Shown here: positions 39,036 through 48,074 of the stretch, piece after piece
Layout of the letters: each line of letters starts with the position of its first letter
How positions within the stretch are numbered: the stretch's first letter is position 1
From: a phage
Sequence record: PZ049713.1
Reading direction: 5' to 3' (one strand)
DNA length: 59,621 nt
The notes under the pieces: generated by a model
What the model saw: the letters and a program-made list of their open reading frames with translations, nothing else
Told to the model about the DNA's origin: nothing
The model's database searches: none
Position numbers and translations under genes: made by a program

Positions 39036-39581
39036 TTATGCCGCTTGCTCAGCAATCAACCCCTCATTACCGAGGATCTCCTGCGCCTCAACCAGCGCTT
39101 GATCCACTTGGCGCTCCAGGTCACGGCGAATGTCCCGGCGCCACCGCTCCAGTGTCTTTTGCGGGCGGCCGTCTTCGTCCCAGCGGTCAAGCTCATACCA
39201 TGCGGCCGGCAATACGCTCGTGCTTCGCTTCCCTTCCGCGCCGGGCAGCTTCGGGAATGCCCAGGTGGCTACGGCGCACTGGATGAACCGGCCAGGTGCT
39301 GGCGACTTCACCGATCCGGCCAGCGCCATCATCGCATCGTGCTTGCGCTCCAGATGGGTGCTGTACTTGGCGACGAGCGCCAGCCACAGACCAACCGGCA
39401 GCGCCTTGTGCAGGCGACCATGGACCCAGCAGTCGGTTAAGAATGCCTCTTCCTTGCCGCAGATCGCCCCAGGCACTCGCTGGTCTTGCACCTTGGGGTC
39501 AAAGTCCACGCCGCCAGCGCTATTGATCGTCTCCGCAGCCAGAGCCCGGACTACTGCTGATACAACTGATGGGTAGGTCAT
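39036..39581 (-). CDS. Putative late-gene regulator (Q-like antiterminator candidate)
   Basis: 181 aa; positional only, last gene before the terminator-containing late leader; no motif recognised. Confidence 0.25.
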   Translation of the reverse strand: MTYPSVVSAVVRALAAETINSAGGVDFDPKVQDQRVPGAICGKEEAFLTDCWVHGRLHKALPVGLWLALVAKYSTHLERKHDAMMALAGSVKSPAPGRFIQCAVATWAFPKLPGAEGKRSTSVLPAAWYELDRWDEDGRPQKTLERWRRDIRRDLERQVDQALVEAQEILGNEGLIAEQAA

Positions 39582-40723
39582 CAGAACAATCTCCCAAGGG
39601 ATGCTGCGAATTCGTAAGGGTCTTTAGCGCTCTTGCGCAGGTTGCAAGGCGGGCACGCGATAACCAGATTGTCGACCACGTGCATTCCACCCTTCGATAG
39701 CGGCTGATAGTGGTCAACGTGATAGTTGTTTTCACACTTTGATTTGCACCAGTGGCAAAACTTTGGAACTGATCGCTCCCAGGCCATAATCACGGACGTA
39801 CTATCGCCACCAGCCTCTAGCTGTCTGCGCCTAGCCTTGTACGCTTTAGATATCGCCTTCCTGATCTCTGGATTCTTCTTTGCCCACTCTTTGGCTTTCT
39901 GCGCCCTTACTTCCCTGTTTTGTTCGTTGCGAATTCTCGCAAGTTGAATGATCCGATCCCTGTTTTCAGCAAGGTATTTCCGGTCGTACTCTTTTTTAAG
40001 TTCAGACCGTGAGAAAATTGCCAAGCACTCGACACATGATCCGGAGGCTGTATATTTCATGCCGCTGTGGCCCTTCGAGCACGGCCGTCCGACATACATT
40101 AAGGCGCCGCTTTCGAGCGCTATCTTTCGTGCGCTCTTGGCTATCCTGCGCTCCTTGCGACGAGCAGCTACCTCCGCCAGCCGAGACGATCGCTCTTCTG
40201 AGATTCGCTTGCGCTCTGCCTTCCCCTTCTCGTACTCCTCCAGCGTCATTCCGAACTTGGCGGCTGCCGATATAGCCTCGCATGTCCGGCAGCGATCAGT
40301 TGATACGTAGCGCTCTGCTGAATGTCCGTTAACGCACGGCAATCCGATGCTGTAGAACATCAGCCCGGCATCCATAGCAGCTTGCCGGAGAGAAGCGCGC
40401 CGTTCCCTCTCAGCTTTCCGCACGGCCAGCCCTGGATCTCGCTTCAGCCGTCGCGACATTTTCTTCTCTGCGCACAAAGGGTCAGAGTCACGCCGCAGCT
40501 TTTGCTCAGCGCGCTCGGCCTCTATGTTCGCGTGATACTTAGCTTTCCTCTTCAGCCTGGCGCACTCACAGCACGCGCCATTGATCGTGGCCCTGCTGGC
40601 GACGTGACCGGCAGGGCAAGGCTTGCCAGTGAAATAGGATTTGCTGCCGGCCTCCTTCGCCTCTTTTCGGCTGCAAGGAAGGTTCAAGTCATCTTGATCT
40701 TTGTTAGAATTCAAATCAGCCAT
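39581..40723 (-). CDS. HNH endonuclease with three N-terminal zinc-module repeats
   Basis: ~380 aa from ATG at 40723; C-terminal HVDHYQPLSKGG...NLVIACPPCNLRKS; three YFTG/YSIG/YVGxPC...GH...CxEC repeats. Confidence 0.65.
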   Translation of the reverse strand: MADLNSNKDQDDLNLPCSRKEAKEAGSKSYFTGKPCPAGHVASRATINGACCECARLKRKAKYHANIEAERAEQKLRRDSDPLCAEKKMSRRLKRDPGLAVRKAERERRASLRQAAMDAGLMFYSIGLPCVNGHSAERYVSTDRCRTCEAISAAAKFGMTLEEYEKGKAERKRISEERSSRLAEVAARRKERRIAKSARKIALESGALMYVGRPCSKGHSGMKYTASGSCVECLAIFSRSELKKEYDRKYLAENRDRIIQLARIRNEQNREVRAQKAKEWAKKNPEIRKAISKAYKARRRQLEAGGDSTSVIMAWERSVPKFCHWCKSKCENNYHVDHYQPLSKGGMHVVDNLVIACPPCNLRKSAKDPYEFAASLGRLF

Positions 40724-40806
40724 TTGTCGCTCCCATATAGCGCTAATGGTTAGGGCCGGCAGTGTGTTCCCGCACTCTGCTGGCCCGTTCAATTCTACCA
40801 AATTAA

Positions 40807-41934
40807 TCAAGCACATAACATTTCCGGCACAACTTCGTTAACTGCTACTCGCCCATATTCCTTGTGGTAGGTAATACCTATTGCGCGGCGGTTAGAGGCA
40901 TAGCCGAGTCTGGCTGCATATGATCCGGTCGCAGTCAGCGTCGGATGCCTGCGAACTATCATTCCGTTATGCGTAGCGACCTCTTCCTTGTGGTAGTGGC
41001 CGGTGTGCGCCTCTCTGTGCTTTGTGCAGCCCCAAATCTCGGGGAAGTTCGCCGCGAAGATGCCCGGCAGGTCCGAATTGCGCGCCTTGTGGCCGTGATG
41101 AAAGCCGAGCATCGTCTTGCCGTGCTGGTAGACGTAATACGGCGTCTCGCTCATGTTCACTTTCAATCTCGGCTCGTTTTCATATAGAGCCTCGAACATA
41201 TGGCGCAACCACAGCGATCCGGCCAAGTCATGGTTGCCCTCTGCAATTACCAGATGGACTTCCTCGTGCTTTGCCAGCGCCATATCAATAATGCTGCGTA
41301 GAACTTTGATACTAACCCGCACCAACTCTGCATATATGCCAGAGACGTTGAGCGGGTGCCGATTGGTTGGCGTTACTGGCTCCAGTCCGTCAAACGTCAG
41401 GAAGTCGCCTAGCTGGTTGATGACGCAATATCTCGCCTTGGCCGATGCGTTGATCATTGCGGCAAAGCAGCCGACAAGCACGCGCTCGGCTTCTTCGAGG
41501 TTCCAGTCGGCGCCACCCTGGATGGCAGTCGCGTATTCCCCGATGTGACAGTCCGTCAGGGTGTACAGGTTGCACAGCGCGTCGTCGGTTTGGGCAGGCC
41601 CGCCCATTGGCGCCAAGCGGTCTATCTGTTCGCCCATTGCTGCGGCTGCGGCGTGCATTAGCTCTAGCTGCCGTTCGTGGTCGATGCTGGACTTGACCCA
41701 CTGCAGCTTCTGCTCGCCGTCCTTGCCGTACAGTGTCGACGTGCCTTTCAGGTGGAAGCCGTCCGGCACGCTCTTGGTCATGTCGTGCTCCGGGCTCCAC
41801 CCCTGACGAGCCAAGCGCGCCTTATGGGTGTAGACGTTGCGCTCGTGCAGCCCAAGGATCTGCGCAGCCTCTGCCACAGTGCGGCCAGTCAGCGCGGCCT
41901 TGATTTCGTCGTCTGTCGCTTTGCGTGCGGCCAT
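40807..41934 (-). CDS. HTH-containing calcineurin-like metallophosphoesterase
   Basis: 375 aa; N-terminal HTH-like stretch; TDCHIG, GDFLTFDG, EGNHD, GFHHGH motifs. Confidence 0.5.
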   Translation of the reverse strand: MAARKATDDEIKAALTGRTVAEAAQILGLHERNVYTHKARLARQGWSPEHDMTKSVPDGFHLKGTSTLYGKDGEQKLQWVKSSIDHERQLELMHAAAAAMGEQIDRLAPMGGPAQTDDALCNLYTLTDCHIGEYATAIQGGADWNLEEAERVLVGCFAAMINASAKARYCVINQLGDFLTFDGLEPVTPTNRHPLNVSGIYAELVRVSIKVLRSIIDMALAKHEEVHLVIAEGNHDLAGSLWLRHMFEALYENEPRLKVNMSETPYYVYQHGKTMLGFHHGHKARNSDLPGIFAANFPEIWGCTKHREAHTGHYHKEEVATHNGMIVRRHPTLTATGSYAARLGYASNRRAIGITYHKEYGRVAVNEVVPEMLCA

Positions 41935-42299
41935 TAGGCTGCCTCCCCCGAGGTGTACTGCATGATGCGAACGCGTACCGCGCCGCCCTTCACGGTTTCG
42001 TCGCTCACGCTGAGCTGAGTCACGAACCGGTTGTCATCGATGCCCAGCGCGTCTGCCAGGCCGTCTCTGCCCGCCTTGAACGCGGCGAGCATGTTGTCGT
42101 CGTCCCGCTTGCGCCGATCGGGCGGCAGGAACTCGATTGCGAGCAGTGCGCGGCCTTCCGGCATTACCAGCCCGGCCGCCTTGCAGAGCAGGTGGCAGTC
42201 GGCTCGGTACTTCTTGGCGATCGGCGCCTTTGCTCGCCAGTGCTTGCGCGAGTTCGGGCTGAGTTCCTTCGGCGGCCAGGGCAGCAGGACTTCGGTCAT
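41934..42299 (-). CDS. rusA: RusA-like Holliday junction resolvase
   Basis: 121 aa; N-terminal ...PPKELSPNSRKHWR...; position in nin-like region. Confidence 0.65.
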   Translation of the reverse strand: MTEVLLPWPPKELSPNSRKHWRAKAPIAKKYRADCHLLCKAAGLVMPEGRALLAIEFLPPDRRKRDDDNMLAAFKAGRDGLADALGIDDNRFVTQLSVSDETVKGGAVRVRIMQYTSGEAA

Positions 42300-42523
42300 C
42301 TACTCCCCCTCGCCTTCGCTTCCAGCGCAGCGCGCACCATCTTGCGCAGCAGCGGGCTCATCCTCGACAGTTCGGCCGATACCCACTGGCGCCACTTCGG
42401 CAGACCCATTGGCTTGCAGCGCTCCCGCATCTTGTCCGCGATTGCGAGAGCAAGTGCTTCCGCATTGGCCTTTGCAGTCAGGCCTTCCGCTGTTAATCCA
42501 CGCCTCGCCGCAGAGCACTTCAT
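42296..42523 (-). CDS. Hypothetical protein
   Basis: 75-aa ORF, ATGA overlap with rusA. Confidence 0.35.
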   Translation of the reverse strand: MKCSAARRGLTAEGLTAKANAEALALAIADKMRERCKPMGLPKWRQWVSAELSRMSPLLRKMVRAALEAKARGSR

Positions 42524-42559
42524 CGCCTAGCCTCGCCTGTACGTCGATTCGAGAGAGCT

Positions 42560-42889
42560 TCATACGATGTACGCCTTCTCTTCTGGAGTGCGGCAGTCGA
42601 TGGTGTTCTGCTGGCCGAACTCTGGCGGCAGGCGGTCCTCGGCCAACTTCGCGTAGCCTTGGATGTCGTGCCAGTTGTCGGCGTAGTTCGGGTCGCCTGA
42701 GAGGATGCGCCCCACCTTGTCTGCGATTACCTCGAGCGATTGCTTCTGCACGTCAGTCAGGCGATCCCAGCCGGCTTCGGCGCACATGGTGCGTTTCAGG
42801 TTCTGGCAGATCCGGGCGTGGTCGGTGAAGTCGCCGTAACGGCTGCCGCGCTCTGCCAGGGTTTGTGCGAGTTTGTTTGCGTCAGTCAT
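42560..42889 (-). CDS. Hypothetical protein
   Basis: ~109 aa from ATG at 42889 (MTDANKL...) with AGGAAG SD; ORF-track frame 42560-43054. Confidence 0.4.
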   Translation of the reverse strand: MTDANKLAQTLAERGSRYGDFTDHARICQNLKRTMCAEAGWDRLTDVQKQSLEVIADKVGRILSGDPNYADNWHDIQGYAKLAEDRLPPEFGQQNTIDCRTPEEKAYIV

Positions 42890-43043
42890 TGCGGCTTCCT
42901 GTCTTGTCTGTTGTTTGCGATCAGGGGGAGCTGGCCGGGCTTTAGCGGCCATGGGTGTTCCTTGCGGCAGTCGTGGCACCAGACGATCTGGCGGCTGCTG
43001 AATGCCGTGGTGTCGTGGTTGGCGTTGGTGGGGCATGGGACTT

Positions 43044-43349
43044 TCAAGCTGCACCCCGCACAGTCAGCACGCCGGCCTGAATCAGCGCGATATGCGTTTC
43101 GGCGATTGCGCGCGGCATGTCCTGCCAGTCCACCTCGCCCCGGCCACGGCCATCGATTGCGTCGTGGCACGAGCTGCAGGCGAACACAGCAACGGTGTCC
43201 AGCCCTTTCATACCGACCCCGCGCTGGCCACATGGCAGGTGTGCCAGAACGGTGGTCTCGGGGTTGAAGTTGCAGACGCCCGGAATGCGGACGGTACAGT
43301 CCTGGCCGCGGGCGCTGTCGCGGAGCTTCTTGGAGACGATGCGGGTCAT
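43044..43349 (-). CDS. Cys-rich nin-region protein (DUF1364/YbcO-like candidate)
   Basis: 101 aa; cysteine clusters CTVRIPGVC and CSSCHDAIDG. Confidence 0.35.
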   Translation of the reverse strand: MTRIVSKKLRDSARGQDCTVRIPGVCNFNPETTVLAHLPCGQRGVGMKGLDTVAVFACSSCHDAIDGRGRGEVDWQDMPRAIAETHIALIQAGVLTVRGAA

Positions 43350-43786
43350 GCTGCCCTCCGCTCGCCATAGATGGCGTACATCAGGTCTTCCGGGTGCGGC
43401 AGCAGCAGGCCCAGCTGCTCGGCGCAGTAGGCGTCAAGCAGCTCCAGGTAAGTGGTCATCTGCTGGATCGTGAAGGCTCGAGTCTTGGCTCGGCCTACCC
43501 GGTACCGGGCGCCGTCCGGCAGCTCTACCGGGTGCACCTCGGACGGCCATAGCTTGCTGACCAGGATCTCGTGCCATTCCTCAGCGCTGGCGATCTGCCC
43601 GAACGACTCGCGAAGGTGCTGCTGGATCAGGCCGTTCCACTGCCAGAGCAGACGGTTTTGGGCGTCGGAGCGCTTGCTGCGAATCTCGGTGATTGCGACC
43701 TTGCGAGGCTTGGAGAGGTCCAAGCCCTGCAGGAAGCTGATCAGGCGCTGGCGGTCCATGTCGGAGCGGAGCATGAGGTCAGCCAT
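43346..43786 (-). CDS. ninB: NinB (Orf) family recombination protein
   Basis: 146 aa; ...RSDAQNRLLWQWNG... parallels the lambda NinB ...RSLDQNRKLWACLG... region; same length. Confidence 0.7.
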   Translation of the reverse strand: MADLMLRSDMDRQRLISFLQGLDLSKPRKVAITEIRSKRSDAQNRLLWQWNGLIQQHLRESFGQIASAEEWHEILVSKLWPSEVHPVELPDGARYRVGRAKTRAFTIQQMTTYLELLDAYCAEQLGLLLPHPEDLMYAIYGERRAA

Positions 43787-44480
43787 TTACGCGGCCTCCT
43801 TCAAAGCTGGCAGCGAGCTCAACGAATGCTGCGTAAGCCACTGCTGCCACTTGCCCGTTTCCAGAGGAGCGGTATCGGTCCACCCTTCCGGCCATCCCAT
43901 CAGCCACTCGTGGATTTCCGGGCTCGGACGCCCAAACACTCGCCGGAACTCGCGCGCGGCCGGCCACTTCTGCATTGAATCGGCGCAGTAGTTCGCCTTG
44001 GTCGTCGGCGTGTGCAAGTAGCCAGTAGCGCTGCCGAACGTGGTCAGCACCCAGGTCTGCCGCGGAGAGGGGAAGCATTCGGACTTGGTAACCCATGCGA
44101 ACGAGGTCGCGTCCGGCTTCTTCAATTGCTCGCTCGGCGACGTTCTCGGCGAAGACAAGCCTGGGAGCGACATCTGCCACGATCCGGCGCATCTCCGGCC
44201 AAAGGTTTTCAGCGTTGTTGCGTCCAGCAGCGGCAGTGCTGAAGGCCTGGCAGGGAAAGCCTCCAGATACGACGTCAACAATTCCGCGCCACGGTAGGCC
44301 GTCAAACGTTCGAACGTCATCCCAGATGGGGAACGGCGGGAGGACTCCATCGTTTTGTCGCTGGACCAGTACCCGCTGACAGTGCTCGTCGTGCTCGACG
44401 GCGCAGACAGGAGTGATGCCGAGCAGGTGGCTTGCGAGCAGGCCGCCACCAACGCCCGCGAATAGAGAAAGCTCATACAC
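43779..44480 (-). CDS. Compact DNA (cytosine-5)-methyltransferase, orphan
   Basis: 233 aa; motif I LFAGVGGG, motif IV GGFPCQAFS, motif VI ENV, motif VIII RQRYWLL; no adjacent restriction endonuclease recognised. Confidence 0.8.
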   Translation of the reverse strand: MYELSLFAGVGGGLLASHLLGITPVCAVEHDEHCQRVLVQRQNDGVLPPFPIWDDVRTFDGLPWRGIVDVVSGGFPCQAFSTAAAGRNNAENLWPEMRRIVADVAPRLVFAENVAERAIEEAGRDLVRMGYQVRMLPLSAADLGADHVRQRYWLLAHADDQGELLRRFNAEVAGRARVPASVWASEPGNPRVADGMAGRVDRYRSSGNGQVAAVAYAAFVELAASFEGGRVNG

Positions 44481-44736
44481 GGCGCGCCTCCCGCTTGTCG
44501 TGGTCGTCCTGGCATTCCTTGCAGCGCACGGCGTTCTTGACTGCGTGTAGCCGGCGCGGGTCGATGTCCTCGCCGCAATCCAGGCAGTCCGGCCGGCTTT
44601 CGCCAGTCATGCGCGACAGCACCATCGCCACGCCACCGATACGATCCGCTTCCTCTAGGCCAGAGGCGCGGTCTGTTACGTCGGGAGCCGTGCGGGCCTG
44701 CTCGAAGGCTTCGGCCATTTCCATGTAGTCGGTCAT
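44473..44736 (-). CDS. TraR/DksA-family C4 zinc-finger protein
   Basis: 87 aa; CLDCGEDI...(17 aa)...CKEC. Confidence 0.65.
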   Translation of the reverse strand: MTDYMEMAEAFEQARTAPDVTDRASGLEEADRIGGVAMVLSRMTGESRPDCLDCGEDIDPRRLHAVKNAVRCKECQDDHDKREARRV

Positions 44737-44891
44737 TTCCGTGCTCCTACGCCGCGCTGGGTGCTTCCGTCAGCACAGACGACGCGATGGTCATTGCCGC
44801 GTGATAGGCCTATGCCGGTCGCGGTGGTTTTTCGTATCTGGTAGCCCTGGCGCTGCAGGAGCTGGATGGCGTGCTGCTGGATAGGGGTCAT
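44733..44891 (-). CDS. Small protein (52 aa), translationally coupled between dnaB and traR-like gene
   Basis: Not in ORF track; ATGA overlap with dnaB stop and ATGA overlap with the traR-like start; reads MTPIQQHAIQLLQRQGYQIRK... Confidence 0.35.
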   Translation of the reverse strand: MTPIQQHAIQLLQRQGYQIRKTTATGIGLSRGNDHRVVCADGSTQRGVGARK

Positions 44892-46258
44892 GCGAAATCC
44901 CCCGATGCACTGCGACTGCGGAACCGGCCCATCTCAACTTCTTCCTGGCTGATCTCGCGCGCACCCGCGAAGCTCACGAACCGCGCGAACTGGCCTTGCT
45001 GCTGAAGGAGGCACGAGCCAACTTGCGCATGACGGCACTTTGTCATCAGGATTTCGGTGACGCCGTTCTGGCCTTCCTCGGTGTCCATGTCCCGGTGAAC
45101 CATGAGGATGCAGTGGGCGTCTGCCTCGATTTCGCCAGAGTCGCGCAGGTCAGCCGAGACGGGCTTTTTGCCTACGCGTTTGGTCGAATCACGGTTGAGC
45201 TGGGAAAGCAGGATTACGGGAATCCCAAGCTCTTTGGAGAGGTTCAACATCGCTTTGCTGATCTTGCCGACCTCTTCCGAGCGACTGCGCCCCTTCGCGT
45301 CAGCCGGGATCAGGCCGAGGTAATCGACCATCACGATGTCAAGGCCATGGTTGCGCTGAACCTGACGGGCTATCGACCGAATGCGCGCCGGGGTCATTCC
45401 AGGGCGGTCGCAGACGTAAAGTGGCTTGTCGACACACTTGGCTACTGCGGCGGTCATGCCCTGCCAATCGCCGTCCTGCATGTCTACGCCAGAGTCGAGC
45501 CGGCCGATATCAACCGACCCGAGAGATGCAATGACGCGCTGGCCAAGCTCTTCCTCTGGCATTTCCAGACTGAAGACCAGGCCAACACCCGCGCCGATCA
45601 TTGCGATGTTCTGAACGATCTGCAGGCCAAGCGTCGTCTTGCCGCTGCCAGGCAGGCCGGCAATCACGGTGACAGTACGGGGACGTAGGTGTCGGGTCAG
45701 CTTGTCGAGGTCAGGCAAGCCGGTGGAAAGCCCCACGACGCGCTTACCGTTGTGCTTCTCGTCGATCGTGTCGACGTTCTTGCGCACGATTTCGTCGATT
45801 CGCTTGTAGCCTGGCTCTCCGTCTTCCAAGTCGCGCAGGTCGGCCATCGCCTGCTGTGCGCTCGCGATAATGTCTGCAAGCGGCTTTTCCTCGGTCGCCA
45901 TCTCTGTCACGGCATTGGCGGCGTCCACCAGTCGGCGCAGAACGGCACGCTCGCGCACGGCTTTGGCATACGCTTCCCAGTTCGCCGTGCTGTAGGTGGC
46001 CTTTGCGATCTCTCCGGCATAGGCGATAGTCGAGTCGCCAGAAGGCAGCTCAGGGCGGAAGATCCCGACCGTCACAGGGTCGATAGGCTCGCCAGCGGCG
46101 TGGCAGTCGAGAATGGCCTGATACAGCGCGGCGTTTTCGATGTCGTAGAAGTCAGCCGCCACGACCTTGCCGCTGATCGCGTCAAACAGGCTCGGGTCGA
46201 GCATCATCGCGCCAAGCACGCCCCATTCGGCTTCGACGCTGTACAGTTCGCGGCTCAT
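44888..46258 (-). CDS. dnaB: Replicative DNA helicase DnaB
   Basis: 456 aa; Walker A GLPGSGKTT; RecA-like C-terminal domain. Confidence 0.9.
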   Translation of the reverse strand: MSRELYSVEAEWGVLGAMMLDPSLFDAISGKVVAADFYDIENAALYQAILDCHAAGEPIDPVTVGIFRPELPSGDSTIAYAGEIAKATYSTANWEAYAKAVRERAVLRRLVDAANAVTEMATEEKPLADIIASAQQAMADLRDLEDGEPGYKRIDEIVRKNVDTIDEKHNGKRVVGLSTGLPDLDKLTRHLRPRTVTVIAGLPGSGKTTLGLQIVQNIAMIGAGVGLVFSLEMPEEELGQRVIASLGSVDIGRLDSGVDMQDGDWQGMTAAVAKCVDKPLYVCDRPGMTPARIRSIARQVQRNHGLDIVMVDYLGLIPADAKGRSRSEEVGKISKAMLNLSKELGIPVILLSQLNRDSTKRVGKKPVSADLRDSGEIEADAHCILMVHRDMDTEEGQNGVTEILMTKCRHAQVGSCLLQQQGQFARFVSFAGAREISQEEVEMGRFRSRSASGDFA

Positions 46259-47046
46259 ACCTCACCCCCGCGCGCCGAGTCCCAATCAAAGATCACTGCT
46301 AGGCCTCCGTTTTCGCGCAGCCGGTCAAGCGCGCGATCGCCGATGTATGCAGCCAGCTCAGCGCTTGGCAGGTTCGAAGTCACGATGGTGGGAAACATGT
46401 TCCGGTAGCGGGCGTCGATGATCGTGTGCAGCGCCTGGCGCTCGAACTCGGTTCCGCCCTGGGCGCCGATCTCGTCGATCAGCAGCAGATCAACACTTGC
46501 CAGCTCTTCGAAAATCGCCTGCTCAGTCACCGCAGAGTCGCGCCCAAAACTGGACTTGATTGCGGCGATGATGTCGGCGGCCGGCACATAGAGCGCCGTC
46601 GCGCCGTACTGGCGAACCACGGCCTTGAGCACGGCGCAGCCAAGATGGGTCTTGCCGTTGCCGAAGTTCCCCAGCAGCAGCAAGCAGCGGCCTGCGTCGT
46701 AGTTCTCTTGGAACTGATCGACATAGGCTCGGCACTCATCGAGAGCGGCCTTCTGTCCAGCCAGCGGCGTGCGGTAGTTATCCAGCGAGCACTGACGGAA
46801 ACGTGCGGCGATGCCAGTTGCAAACAGAGCAGCGTTGACCGCCTCCCACTGCTTCGACTCGACGGCAGCGGCACGTGCAGCTTCGTCCGTCCCGTGGATG
46901 GCATCGAACCGGCAGCGCGGGCATCCGGTGACGCGGTGCTTGTCGTCAAATGATTCGATCAAGGTACGCTGGTACTCGCCGTGCAGTTCGCACTGCTCCG
47001 GGCGAGATTTGATCCGCGGCGAGGCGCCGAAGTTAGAAGTTCGCAC
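46255..47046 (-). CDS. DnaC/IstB-like helicase loader ATPase
   Basis: 263 aa; Walker A GNFGNGKTH, Walker B LLLIDEIG. Confidence 0.7.
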   Translation of the reverse strand: MRTSNFGASPRIKSRPEQCELHGEYQRTLIESFDDKHRVTGCPRCRFDAIHGTDEAARAAAVESKQWEAVNAALFATGIAARFRQCSLDNYRTPLAGQKAALDECRAYVDQFQENYDAGRCLLLLGNFGNGKTHLGCAVLKAVVRQYGATALYVPAADIIAAIKSSFGRDSAVTEQAIFEELASVDLLLIDEIGAQGGTEFERQALHTIIDARYRNMFPTIVTSNLPSAELAAYIGDRALDRLRENGGLAVIFDWDSARGGEV

Positions 47047-47842
47047 GACGAACCCCCAGGCGCTTGTTCTCTTCGGTCTTGGCGCGGATCTCTGCGGCGT
47101 TCACGGGCGGCAGGTTGGTGAATCGCGACATCTGGATCGGGCGGACATTGGCGGTCACCTTCTCAGGGAACAATCCGGTCCAGCCATTGGTGATCGAGAG
47201 CAGGATCACGGCGTCAGGGCTCGCGTGACCTTCCAGTTCCTTCGCCTGACGCTTGCAGCTCGTTTCGGTCAGCGGCTTGCGGATTTCCTTGCGGTGAGCA
47301 ACCCAGTCTGCCCAAACCTCAGCGGACACGTTGGCAGGCTTTGCAGCCAGAGCATCAAACTTCTTTCCCTTCGCCGGCGCGTCAGCGCCGTGCTCTTTCG
47401 GATCATTGATGGTTAAAGGATGGTTAAAGGACGGATTGGGTGCAGGAGCTGCACCCCGTTCTGTCGTGAGCTGCACCCCGTTCGTGCATGAGCTGCACCC
47501 CGTTGTGTCGTCAGATTCACCCCGTTCAGAACCGGGTGCATCTGCTGCACCCCGATCCATGCACAGGTCATATACCACTGGACGGCGGTCGTGGCGGTCA
47601 ATGTAGGCCGCAGCGATCGCCTGATTGCCCAGGGTGATTACCTCAGCCTCACGCAGAGACTCCAGCGCCGTGCGGATCGTGCGAACGGACAGGCCGGTGT
47701 CTTCGCTCAGGCTGCTTGCGGAAGGGAATGCGGCCTTACCATTCTTATCGGCGTAGTTCGCCAGGCACAGAAGAACATGGCGCGCCGTTGGCGAGGTAAC
47801 GATGCGCTGCTCAAGCGCCCAGGTCATGGCTTGAACACTCAT
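47033..47842 (-). CDS. Replication initiator (lambda O-like) containing ori iterons
   Basis: ~269 aa from ATG at 47842 (MSVQAMTWALEQ...); N-terminal HTH-like region; iterons in mid-gene. Confidence 0.6.
   Translation of the reverse strand: MSVQAMTWALEQRIVTSPTARHVLLCLANYADKNGKAAFPSASSLSEDTGLSVRTIRTALESLREAEVITLGNQAIAAAYIDRHDRRPVVYDLCMDRGAADAPGSERGESDDTTGCSSCTNGVQLTTERGAAPAPNPSFNHPLTINDPKEHGADAPAKGKKFDALAAKPANVSAEVWADWVAHRKEIRKPLTETSCKRQAKELEGHASPDAVILLSITNGWTGLFPEKVTANVRPIQMSRFTNLPPVNAAEIRAKTEENKRLGVRRANF
47446..47555. repeat. Iteron array (origin of replication candidate) inside initiator gene
   Basis: GAGCTGCACCCCGTT at 47446, 47468 and 47490 (22-bp period), with degenerate copies near 47516 and 47541; adjacent tandem ATGGTTAAAGG x2 at 47409-47430. 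Confidence 0.65.
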
Positions 47843-47843
47843 C

Positions 47844-48074
47844 TCAAATCTCCAGCTCGTCAGTGACGCGCTTGATGAACTCGTCGTAGCTCTCGGCCAT
47901 CTGAATACCCAGCTCTTCCAGGGCGCCGCGATAAGCCTTGGCCGATCCGTAGAGAGCCCAGCGATCACGCTCATGCAGATGCTTGAATGCCGAGTAGGAA
48001 GGCCACGGCCCTGCGATAACGGCGCTTGCGCGCTGCTGGTCGATGGTGTTGCGGTGGAAGTCGTGTTGGCGCAT
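47844..48074 (-). CDS. Hypothetical protein
   Basis: 76-aa ORF ending 1 nt before the initiator start. Confidence 0.4.
   Translation of the reverse strand: MRQHDFHRNTIDQQRASAVIAGPWPSYSAFKHLHERDRWALYGSAKAYRGALEELGIQMAESYDEFIKRVTDELEI

Follow-up and report, generated by a model that had tools for sequence, protein, structure and literature searches.

The phage-derived sequence PZ049713.1 (59,621 nt; hereafter, the window) carries on its minus strand, at 43779-44480, a gene for a 233-aa homologue of the enzymes that methylate cytosine C5 in DNA (C5-methyltransferases, C5-MTases). We consider it probable that this locus encodes a two-polypeptide C5-MTase from a single stretch of DNA read in two frames. 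Frame A begins with GTG and encodes the catalytic chain (alpha); frame B, located at 43787-44476 on the same strand and +1 relative to alpha, encodes a second chain (beta) of 229 aa plus a stop. According to this reading, ribosomes would load at one Shine-Dalgarno (SD) sequence and start either at the frame-A GTG, yielding alpha, or at the frame-B ATG 4 nt downstream, yielding beta. Beta would consist of a passenger leader of ~145 residues followed by a TPT…EWLMGWPxGW module (residues ~147-204), a candidate for the small-domain piece missing from alpha, comprising a target recognition domain (TRD)-like part and a motif-IX-like part. The two chains would then assemble into an active enzyme, as in M.EcoHK31I, which would methylate the phage DNA during early (replication/nin) expression and protect it from host restriction. 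Translation of beta, its assembly with alpha, and the activity, target specificity and protective role of the enzyme are what we infer from the comparisons and models described below.

Two open reading frames in one gene

Frame B runs from an ATG at 44476-44474 to a stop codon at 43789-43787 and spans essentially the whole methyltransferase (MTase) gene; in the program-made list of open reading frames (ORFs), the +1-frame ORF is given as 43787-44578. Its translation reads "…LHTPTTKANY…SMQKWP…PSPEIHEWLMGWPEGWTDTAPLETGKWQQWL", and the stretches specific to this frame include ANYCADSMQK and VFGRPSPEIHEWLMGWPEGWTDTAPLETGK. The last ~40 residues of frame B match phrog_26627 (4e-10), phrog_35493 (4e-9) and phrog_1008 ("DNA methyltransferase", 4e-5), and the annotated frame A over the same nucleotides matches phrog_32758 and phrog_363. 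We found 656 database proteins that correspond to the frame-B product, most of them ~220-230 aa in length and every named one called "hypothetical"; none of these homologues has a Pfam or NCBIfam family.

Related phages carry the same pair of frames. In Pseudomonas phage PS-1, whose frame-A protein is ~68% identical to that of the window, both frames are open, and frame B is the better conserved around LHTPTTKANY. Both are likewise open in Klebsiella, Ralstonia, Salmonella and Stenotrophomonas phages (51-58% GC), where frame B opens with an ATG ("MSWLFSQAL…") just where the MTase gene itself begins and closes within a few codons of the MTase stop.

We assembled homologues from 80 IMG/VR loci and six phage records and counted frame-B stops in 76 of them (36-98% identity, some with a GC content as low as 47%), using as a null the shuffling of synonymous codons gene by gene, so that neither the frame-A protein nor its codon usage is altered. 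Across the 76 homologues, frame B contains 3 internal stops compared to ~295 expected, a depletion of approximately 100-fold. The depletion extends along the gene: in a set of 51 sequences with less than 85% identity to one another, the successive quarters contain 2, 0, 0 and 1 stops, compared to 27, 45, 82 and 59 expected. The third frame has 7-27 stops per gene in the homologues, and frame B stops only at its two ends. As a control, 122 flanking genes from the same loci gave 1064 stops versus 1114 expected (ratio 0.96). Within the window itself, frame B of the MTase gene has 0 internal stops compared to 3.6 expected (P=0.007), and the other window genes have about as many stops as expected.

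The reciprocal comparison, based on shuffles synonymous in frame B, found 0 frame-A stops within the frame-B-constrained segment described below, compared to 92.5 expected. Because stops are depleted in frame B and, within that segment, in frame A as well, this comparative analysis shows that, at the level of sequence, both frames are actively kept open from end to end. A selected second ORF in an alternative frame inside alpha is also the arrangement that typifies M.EcoHK31I. A frame plot of GC by codon position across the window was indecisive, with a weak bias at the third codon position in the MTase gene, which is consistent with dual coding.

The two frames share one initiation region (44473-44492, minus strand). 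A single SD sequence, GGGAGG (44492-44487), lies 6 nt upstream of the alpha GTG (44480-44478) and 10 nt upstream of the beta ATG (44476-44474). The beta ATG follows the alpha GTG by 4 nt and forms ATGA with the stop codon TGA (44475-44473) of the upstream TraR gene, a stop that overlaps both MTase starts. A tandem start of the form (A/G/T)TG-AAT-GAG occurs in 63 of the 87 loci and the window type, GTG-TAT-GAG, in 7 more (together 70/87), and the codon preceding GAG (Asn or Tyr) always ends in AT; across these loci, then, the tandem starts are shown to be conserved. Six loci have the reversed order ATGNCNTGG, with frame B first. In these six, the beta N-terminus M[ST]W[LI]ISxAL is kept, frame A is unrelated there, and the variation is synonymous in frame B, a small-sample hint that the outermost N-terminal residues of beta are important in themselves.

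Constraint, structure and alternative readings

Alpha is a member of a frame-A family of at least 6707 homologues, mostly 224-240 aa in length. It matches phrog_363 (E=2e-49) and PF00145 (E=1.4e-20), the latter only over aa 4-162, corresponding to profile positions 4-166 of 324; TIGR00675 likewise covers only the first ~165 residues. Alignment to M.HhaI bears out the C5-MTase motifs named in the initial annotation, I (FAGVGGG), IV (GFPCQ), VI (ENV) and VIII (RQRYW), whose residues are invariant in the 51 homologues. The PF00145 match leaves motif X unaligned, and we located it in the same chain as GNGQV, residues 207-211, with G207 and N208 invariant. An AlphaFold2 model of alpha built from the family alignment (predicted TM-score 0.67) has a Rossmann-type core and matches the catalytic (large) domain of M.HaeIII, M.HhaI and DNMT1, so that, as judged from the model, alpha is shown to have the C5-MTase catalytic fold.

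Canonical C5-MTases are ~300-400 aa long and hold the TRD and motif IX in one chain, and in the known enzymes the small domain is required for DNA recognition. Alpha does not have a TRD and motif IX between motifs VIII and X. Its residues ~158-202, which occupy that interval, form a linker that is unconserved in frame A, and residues 172-209 of the model have a predicted local distance difference test (pLDDT) score below 50, followed by a C-terminal helix at 209-226; the remainder of the model is confident.

Codon-position entropies from the 51-sequence alignment (H1 to H3 for frame A, HB1 to HB3 for frame B) divide the gene into three segments, all on the minus strand. In the first (44010-44480), which encodes alpha residues 1-157 with motifs I-VIII, H3>H1>H2: over residues 1-155 the third position is the most variable, as expected of frame A, and in the motif I-VIII region the most variable frame-B position is the second. 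The next segment (43865-44038) is constrained in frame B. It encodes beta residues ~147-204, 'GYLHTPTTKANY…SMQKWP…PSPEIHEWLMGWPEGWTD' in the window and "sGlwpTPTa…lnP.wvEWLMGWPlGWTDL" in the family, and here HB3 > HB1 ≈ HB2, with the first position of frame A the most variable, which is the signature of coding in frame B. In the last segment (43803-43874), where the alpha motif X helix (…RYRSSGNGQVAAVAYAAF…) shares its DNA with the beta tail 'PLETGKWQQWLTQH', frame A regains dominance, the entropies returning to H3>H1>H2 over alpha residues 203-224.

Protein-level conservation follows the same division. Mean pairwise identity in frame A compared to frame B is 0.94 versus 0.63 at the N-terminus, 0.58 versus 0.70 in the EWLMGWP segment (186-203) and 0.75 versus 0.50 at motif X. 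The AlphaFold model of beta, also from a family alignment, has a pLDDT below 50 for residues 1-144, and only residues ~156-200 reach 62-76; the alpha and beta models are complementary in their confident parts. Amino-acid constraint, as read from the alignment, is shown to be divided between the frames, and beta residues 1 to ~145 form an open leader, with alpha setting its sequence.

This division bears on the single-chain enzyme with a minimal TRD that had been proposed for the gene. The linker is unconserved in alpha, with a pLDDT below 50, and the same nucleotides are under purifying selection in frame B; the compactness of the 233-aa protein therefore reflects a split, dual-frame gene and not a minimal TRD.

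Support for this assignment comes from a relative (L088; JGI 3300023210 contig, 1501-2829) that retains the same tandem start, ATGAATGAG. Its frame A stops right after motif VIII, and its frame B, 442 aa in length, contains several W/xTPT segments, EWLMGWPxGW and then motif X (RLKAVGNGQVPQVAA) in one frame. The EWLMGWPxGW element is present twice, through a tandem duplication of 'LNPDWVEWLMGWPxGWTDLAPLP…GSTPRVT'. This single-frame order places the beta module where canonical enzymes have the TRD and motif IX, and the locus, judged by its reading frames, is an M.AquI-like split. The canonical motif IX pattern is RxLTxRExARLxGFPxxF/Y. We set the beta sequence LNPxWVEWLMGWPxGW beside it; the resemblance, together with the position of the module ahead of motif X in L088, leads us to propose that the ~147-204 segment is TRD-like and motif-IX-like, its putative motif-IX identity resting on position and on this pattern.

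Two further loci deviate from the usual arrangement. In L091 (JGI 3300023548 contig, ~200-1340), an insert breaks the alpha frame immediately ahead of motif X, exactly between '…GVASRV' and 'DRLRCIGNGQVP'. The third frame of the insert encodes an HNH motif (HHINHDPRDNRPENIKILCQECH), whereas the ORF in frame B stays open across it and continues into motif X. A mobile intervening sequence and a homing endonuclease are possible identities for the insert; an Rfam scan of this locus found no group I or group II intron. In L087 (Logan SRR17509919, a 1.6-kb contig, 540-1560), an alpha-type protein runs past motif X in-frame into a beta-type segment (GYVHTPTTMANY…AEYLMGLP). This segment looks like a second partial copy of the gene, read in frame B; its alternative frame contains many stops. 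We note that a frameshift is present upstream of motif I as well, and the contig may represent a decaying copy or an assembly error.

We considered the L087 protein (P0335) as a natural alpha-beta fusion and set it aside as weakly supported, given the frameshifted contig and the apparent second partial gene copy. Two short proteins of 69-75 aa (P0375 and P0281) were also considered as free-standing beta genes; their loci (L089 and L090) are two-frame copies at contig edges, and the ORFs are gene-calling fragments.

Several observations weigh against the two-polypeptide reading. That beta is translated and that it binds alpha are themselves inferred. Beta would be a strangely built subunit, with ~145 residues for which no separate constraint is seen. 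The profile of the beta segment retrieved no solved C5-MTase from the PDB sequences at E ≤ 10, and the beta model had no match among PDB folds. When PF00145 was compared with the native protein and with chimeras joining frames A, B and A, the C-terminal motifs were unaligned and the score did not increase; this test is uninformative because the profile leaves motifs IX and X unaligned even in native proteins. The TRD of M.EcoHK31I lies in its alpha, unlike here, where alpha has no TRD and a length-variable, TPT-containing TRD-like region is found in beta. Finally, the homologous loci are phylogenetically related and the stop counts are not fully independent, though 51 of the sequences are less than 85% identical.

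Among the alternatives, the one that fares best, although we regard it as unlikely, is that alpha is self-sufficient or acts as a homo-oligomer and that frame B is a separate overprinted gene of unrelated function, such as a regulator or an anti-defence factor. Dual coding is established and a functional link between beta and alpha is not, and neither a profile nor a fold match ties the beta module to the small domains of C5-MTases. An unrelated gene, however, would leave alpha without conserved sequence at the expected position of the TRD and motif IX in an enzyme class that needs a small domain. The beta constraint coincides exactly with this gap in alpha, and the beta-type module of L088 shares its frame with motif X and so belongs to the MTase polypeptide there. 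Furthermore, the alpha chain of M.EcoHK31I is inactive alone (PMC2836561).

We give still less weight to programmed frameshifting, in which a single chain would be read in frame A, shift by +1 after motif VIII into the TPT…EWLMGWPxGW segment and return to frame A before motif X. Such a path would restore the canonical order of motifs I-VIII, TRD/IX and X, and in L088 one +1 shift would do the same. It would nevertheless require two opposite shifts within ~60 codons, and we saw no conserved slippery motif at the junction, which falls within the most variable part of the alignment. Nor does it account for the open frame B over the ~155 codons that precede the putative shift (2 stops versus ~154 expected), for the conserved frame-B ATG beside the frame-A start or for the lack of frame-A stops along the frame-B segment (0 versus 92.5).

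The initial annotation's compact 233-aa orphan C5-MTase with a minimal TRD, under which frame B would have to be an accident of a GC-rich gene, runs counter to the comparative evidence and is in our view highly improbable: frame A does have all the catalytic motifs and is the choice of most gene callers, and long shadow ORFs are common at the 60% GC of the window, but homologues with a GC content as low as 47-51% still keep frame B open, with 8-21 stops in the third frame, the ~100-fold stop depletion was obtained against a null that behaves correctly on control genes, and segment 186-203 is better conserved in frame B than in frame A.

Gene neighbourhood of the methyltransferase

The MTase gene lies within an early replication/nin-type operon, all of it on the minus strand. 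Upstream, family searches identified an O-like initiator (47033-47974) and a DnaC-like loader (46255-47046), followed by the DnaB helicase gene dnaB (44888-46258; DnaB/DnaB_C match), an ORF of 52 aa (44733-44891) and a gene for an 87-aa TraR/DksA-type C4 zinc-finger protein (44473-44736; PF01258, E=1.2e-9; phrog_54, E=9e-17). The 52-aa ORF overlaps dnaB and the TraR gene by 4 nt at each side, and the TraR gene overlaps the MTase gene by 8 nt; the ORFs and the chain of overlaps (4, 4 and 8 nt) in the initial annotation are exact. Downstream are genes for a NinB/Orf recombination mediator (43346-43786; PF05772, phrog_72) and, again from family searches, a YbcO-type nuclease (43044-43349), a DUF6378 protein (42560-43054) and RusA (41934-42299). 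The NinB gene overlaps the 3′ end of the MTase gene by 8 nt; its ATG comes directly after the beta stop (TAA-ATG) and shares nucleotides with that of alpha. An Rfam scan of positions 42500-46500 gave no match.

Because a CI-like repressor (48916-49590), a repair exonuclease, a packaging-type HNH endonuclease, a terminase and a portal protein are encoded farther out in the window, we assign it to a lambdoid prophage. Its nearest named relatives belong to the Pseudomonas/Stutzerimonas group. A megablast search of the region against phage genomes returned a single match of 33 nt, and there is therefore no close sequenced phage. Between the nin-type region and the packaging genes, at 39581-40816 (minus strand), lies a gene for a 411-aa protein with a C-terminal HNH/endonuclease VII domain, which is preceded by approximately four Cys-rich repeats (…GxPCxxGHxxxRxxxxGxCxxC…); phrog_1081 matched this protein twice.

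The enzyme had been described as having no partner restriction enzyme, and we likewise found no restriction endonuclease near the MTase in a scan of 20 ORFs, 10 around the MTase and 10 elsewhere in the window. The neighbours scanned were TraR, NinB, the YbcO-type nuclease, DUF6378, RusA, the repair exonuclease and the packaging-type HNH protein. The adjacent cognate restriction endonuclease of a type II restriction-modification (R-M) system is absent here, though a partner encoded at a distance may exist.

The TraR and MTase genes had also been viewed as a module expressed with the replication genes. Their adjacency in the replication operon holds; a general functional module does not, as the pairing is confined to 12 closely related loci with near-identical MTases. 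Among these, the MTase genes are 94-98% identical, compared to 48-83% for TraR and 36-99% for DnaB, which looks, from these identities, like mosaic exchange around a conserved MTase cassette and not like a general TraR-MTase functional unit. When loci L007-L016 and L026 were compared with positions 43000-47000 of the window, the MTase cassette was 94-98% identical, and TraR, DnaB, DnaC and NinB/YbcO differed widely or were replaced. The 52-aa ORF, coupled in translation to dnaB on one side and to TraR on the other, has no Pfam or PHROG match. It gave tblastn matches in 11 related loci at 33-100% identity, the weakest of which (33-35%) had E values of ~1e-6 to 1e-7, and is probably a real small gene.

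Annotation of the family and comparison with known systems

Public records treat the two products inconsistently (clusters P0001, P0121; P0028; P0126), with frame A called "DNA cytosine methyltransferase" and frame B "hypothetical protein". The frame-A product is the one annotated in, for example, Stutzerimonas nitrititolerans, and only the frame-B product is annotated in, for example, P. aeruginosa (PCP56_27945). PHROGs names the frame-B-type family phrog_1008 'DNA methyltransferase'.

Long overlapping genes are a matter of dispute for double-stranded DNA (dsDNA) phages and for bacteria, where few cases have good support. For the locus described here, the comparative support is strong, combining a ~100-fold stop depletion with working controls, a reciprocal partition of constraint and a mechanistic rationale. 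We also entertain a broader hypothesis, toward which we lean somewhat less than away: that a large clade of phage C5-MTases is built as co-extensive, overlapping gene pairs on the same strand with tandem starts and one ribosome-binding site, in which the ~150-codon beta leader would be translatable only so that the recognition module shares the mRNA of the catalytic chain. Frame-A proteins of this clade number in the thousands, and frame-B proteins that were called separately number in the hundreds. The shared mRNA would possibly serve a fixed stoichiometry or assembly in cis.

If this broader hypothesis is true, the pair would rank among the longest overlapping genes of dsDNA phages and among the most widely conserved ones, and would be systematically half-annotated. 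Annotation pipelines should permit both products at one locus, and thousands of "compact" phage C5-MTases would look incomplete for a reason. The family would offer natural parts for split-methyltransferase tools, and tandem dual-frame initiation becomes directly testable at this locus.

The literature we searched contains no description of a two-frame architecture for phage methyltransferases. The only enzyme with such a logic that we found there, and a clear precedent, is M.EcoHK31I from E. coli HK31, which recognizes YGGCCR. Its alpha carries motifs I-VIII, X and the TRD, its beta carries motif IX and is encoded wholly within the alpha gene in a different frame, and activity requires both chains (PMC2836561, PMC3404938). 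By the published description, the window gene resembles this enzyme in having a second polypeptide in the other frame inside alpha and an alpha with motifs I-VIII and X. Tens of residues at the N-terminus of the M.EcoHK31I beta affect association and not catalysis (PMC2836561; PMC3404938), and this dispensability for catalysis is consistent with the unconstrained beta leader found here. Unlike M.EcoHK31I, the two MTase ORFs of the window are co-extensive (229 versus 233 codons), with tandem starts 4 nt apart and one SD sequence, and the gene is an orphan in a prophage replication/nin operon instead of part of an R-M pair.

M.AquI from Agmenellum quadruplicatum (CYCGRG) is a natural alpha/beta C5-MTase whose subunits must associate and whose variable region is divided between them (PMC3404938). 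The L088 locus resembles it in that one frame holds motifs I-VIII, and the TRD and motifs IX and X fall in the second. In the window, by contrast, motif X stays with alpha and is not joined to motif IX on the second chain. Orphan Dcm-like C5-MTases of phages (phrog_363/PF00145) share with the window gene the catalytic domain, the orphan status, the early-gene location and the presumed protective role; what sets the present family apart is a frame A of ~225-235 aa with a conserved +1-frame partner. Long overprinted genes of viruses, lying on one strand, are similar in that two frames use the same nucleotides, one frame dominates in each segment and the passenger part is predicted to be disordered. 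Unlike in those genes, the constrained part of beta is probably not de novo and looks like a displaced piece of an ancestral methyltransferase.

At ~690 nt, end to end and with tandem starts, the overlap has a length that is unusual among dsDNA phage genes. The arrangement is of interest for its prevalence, for the full-length overlap with tandem starts and as a well-supported long overlapping pair. If the two-polypeptide reading is true, the split architecture of M.EcoHK31I and M.AquI would be a common phage design.

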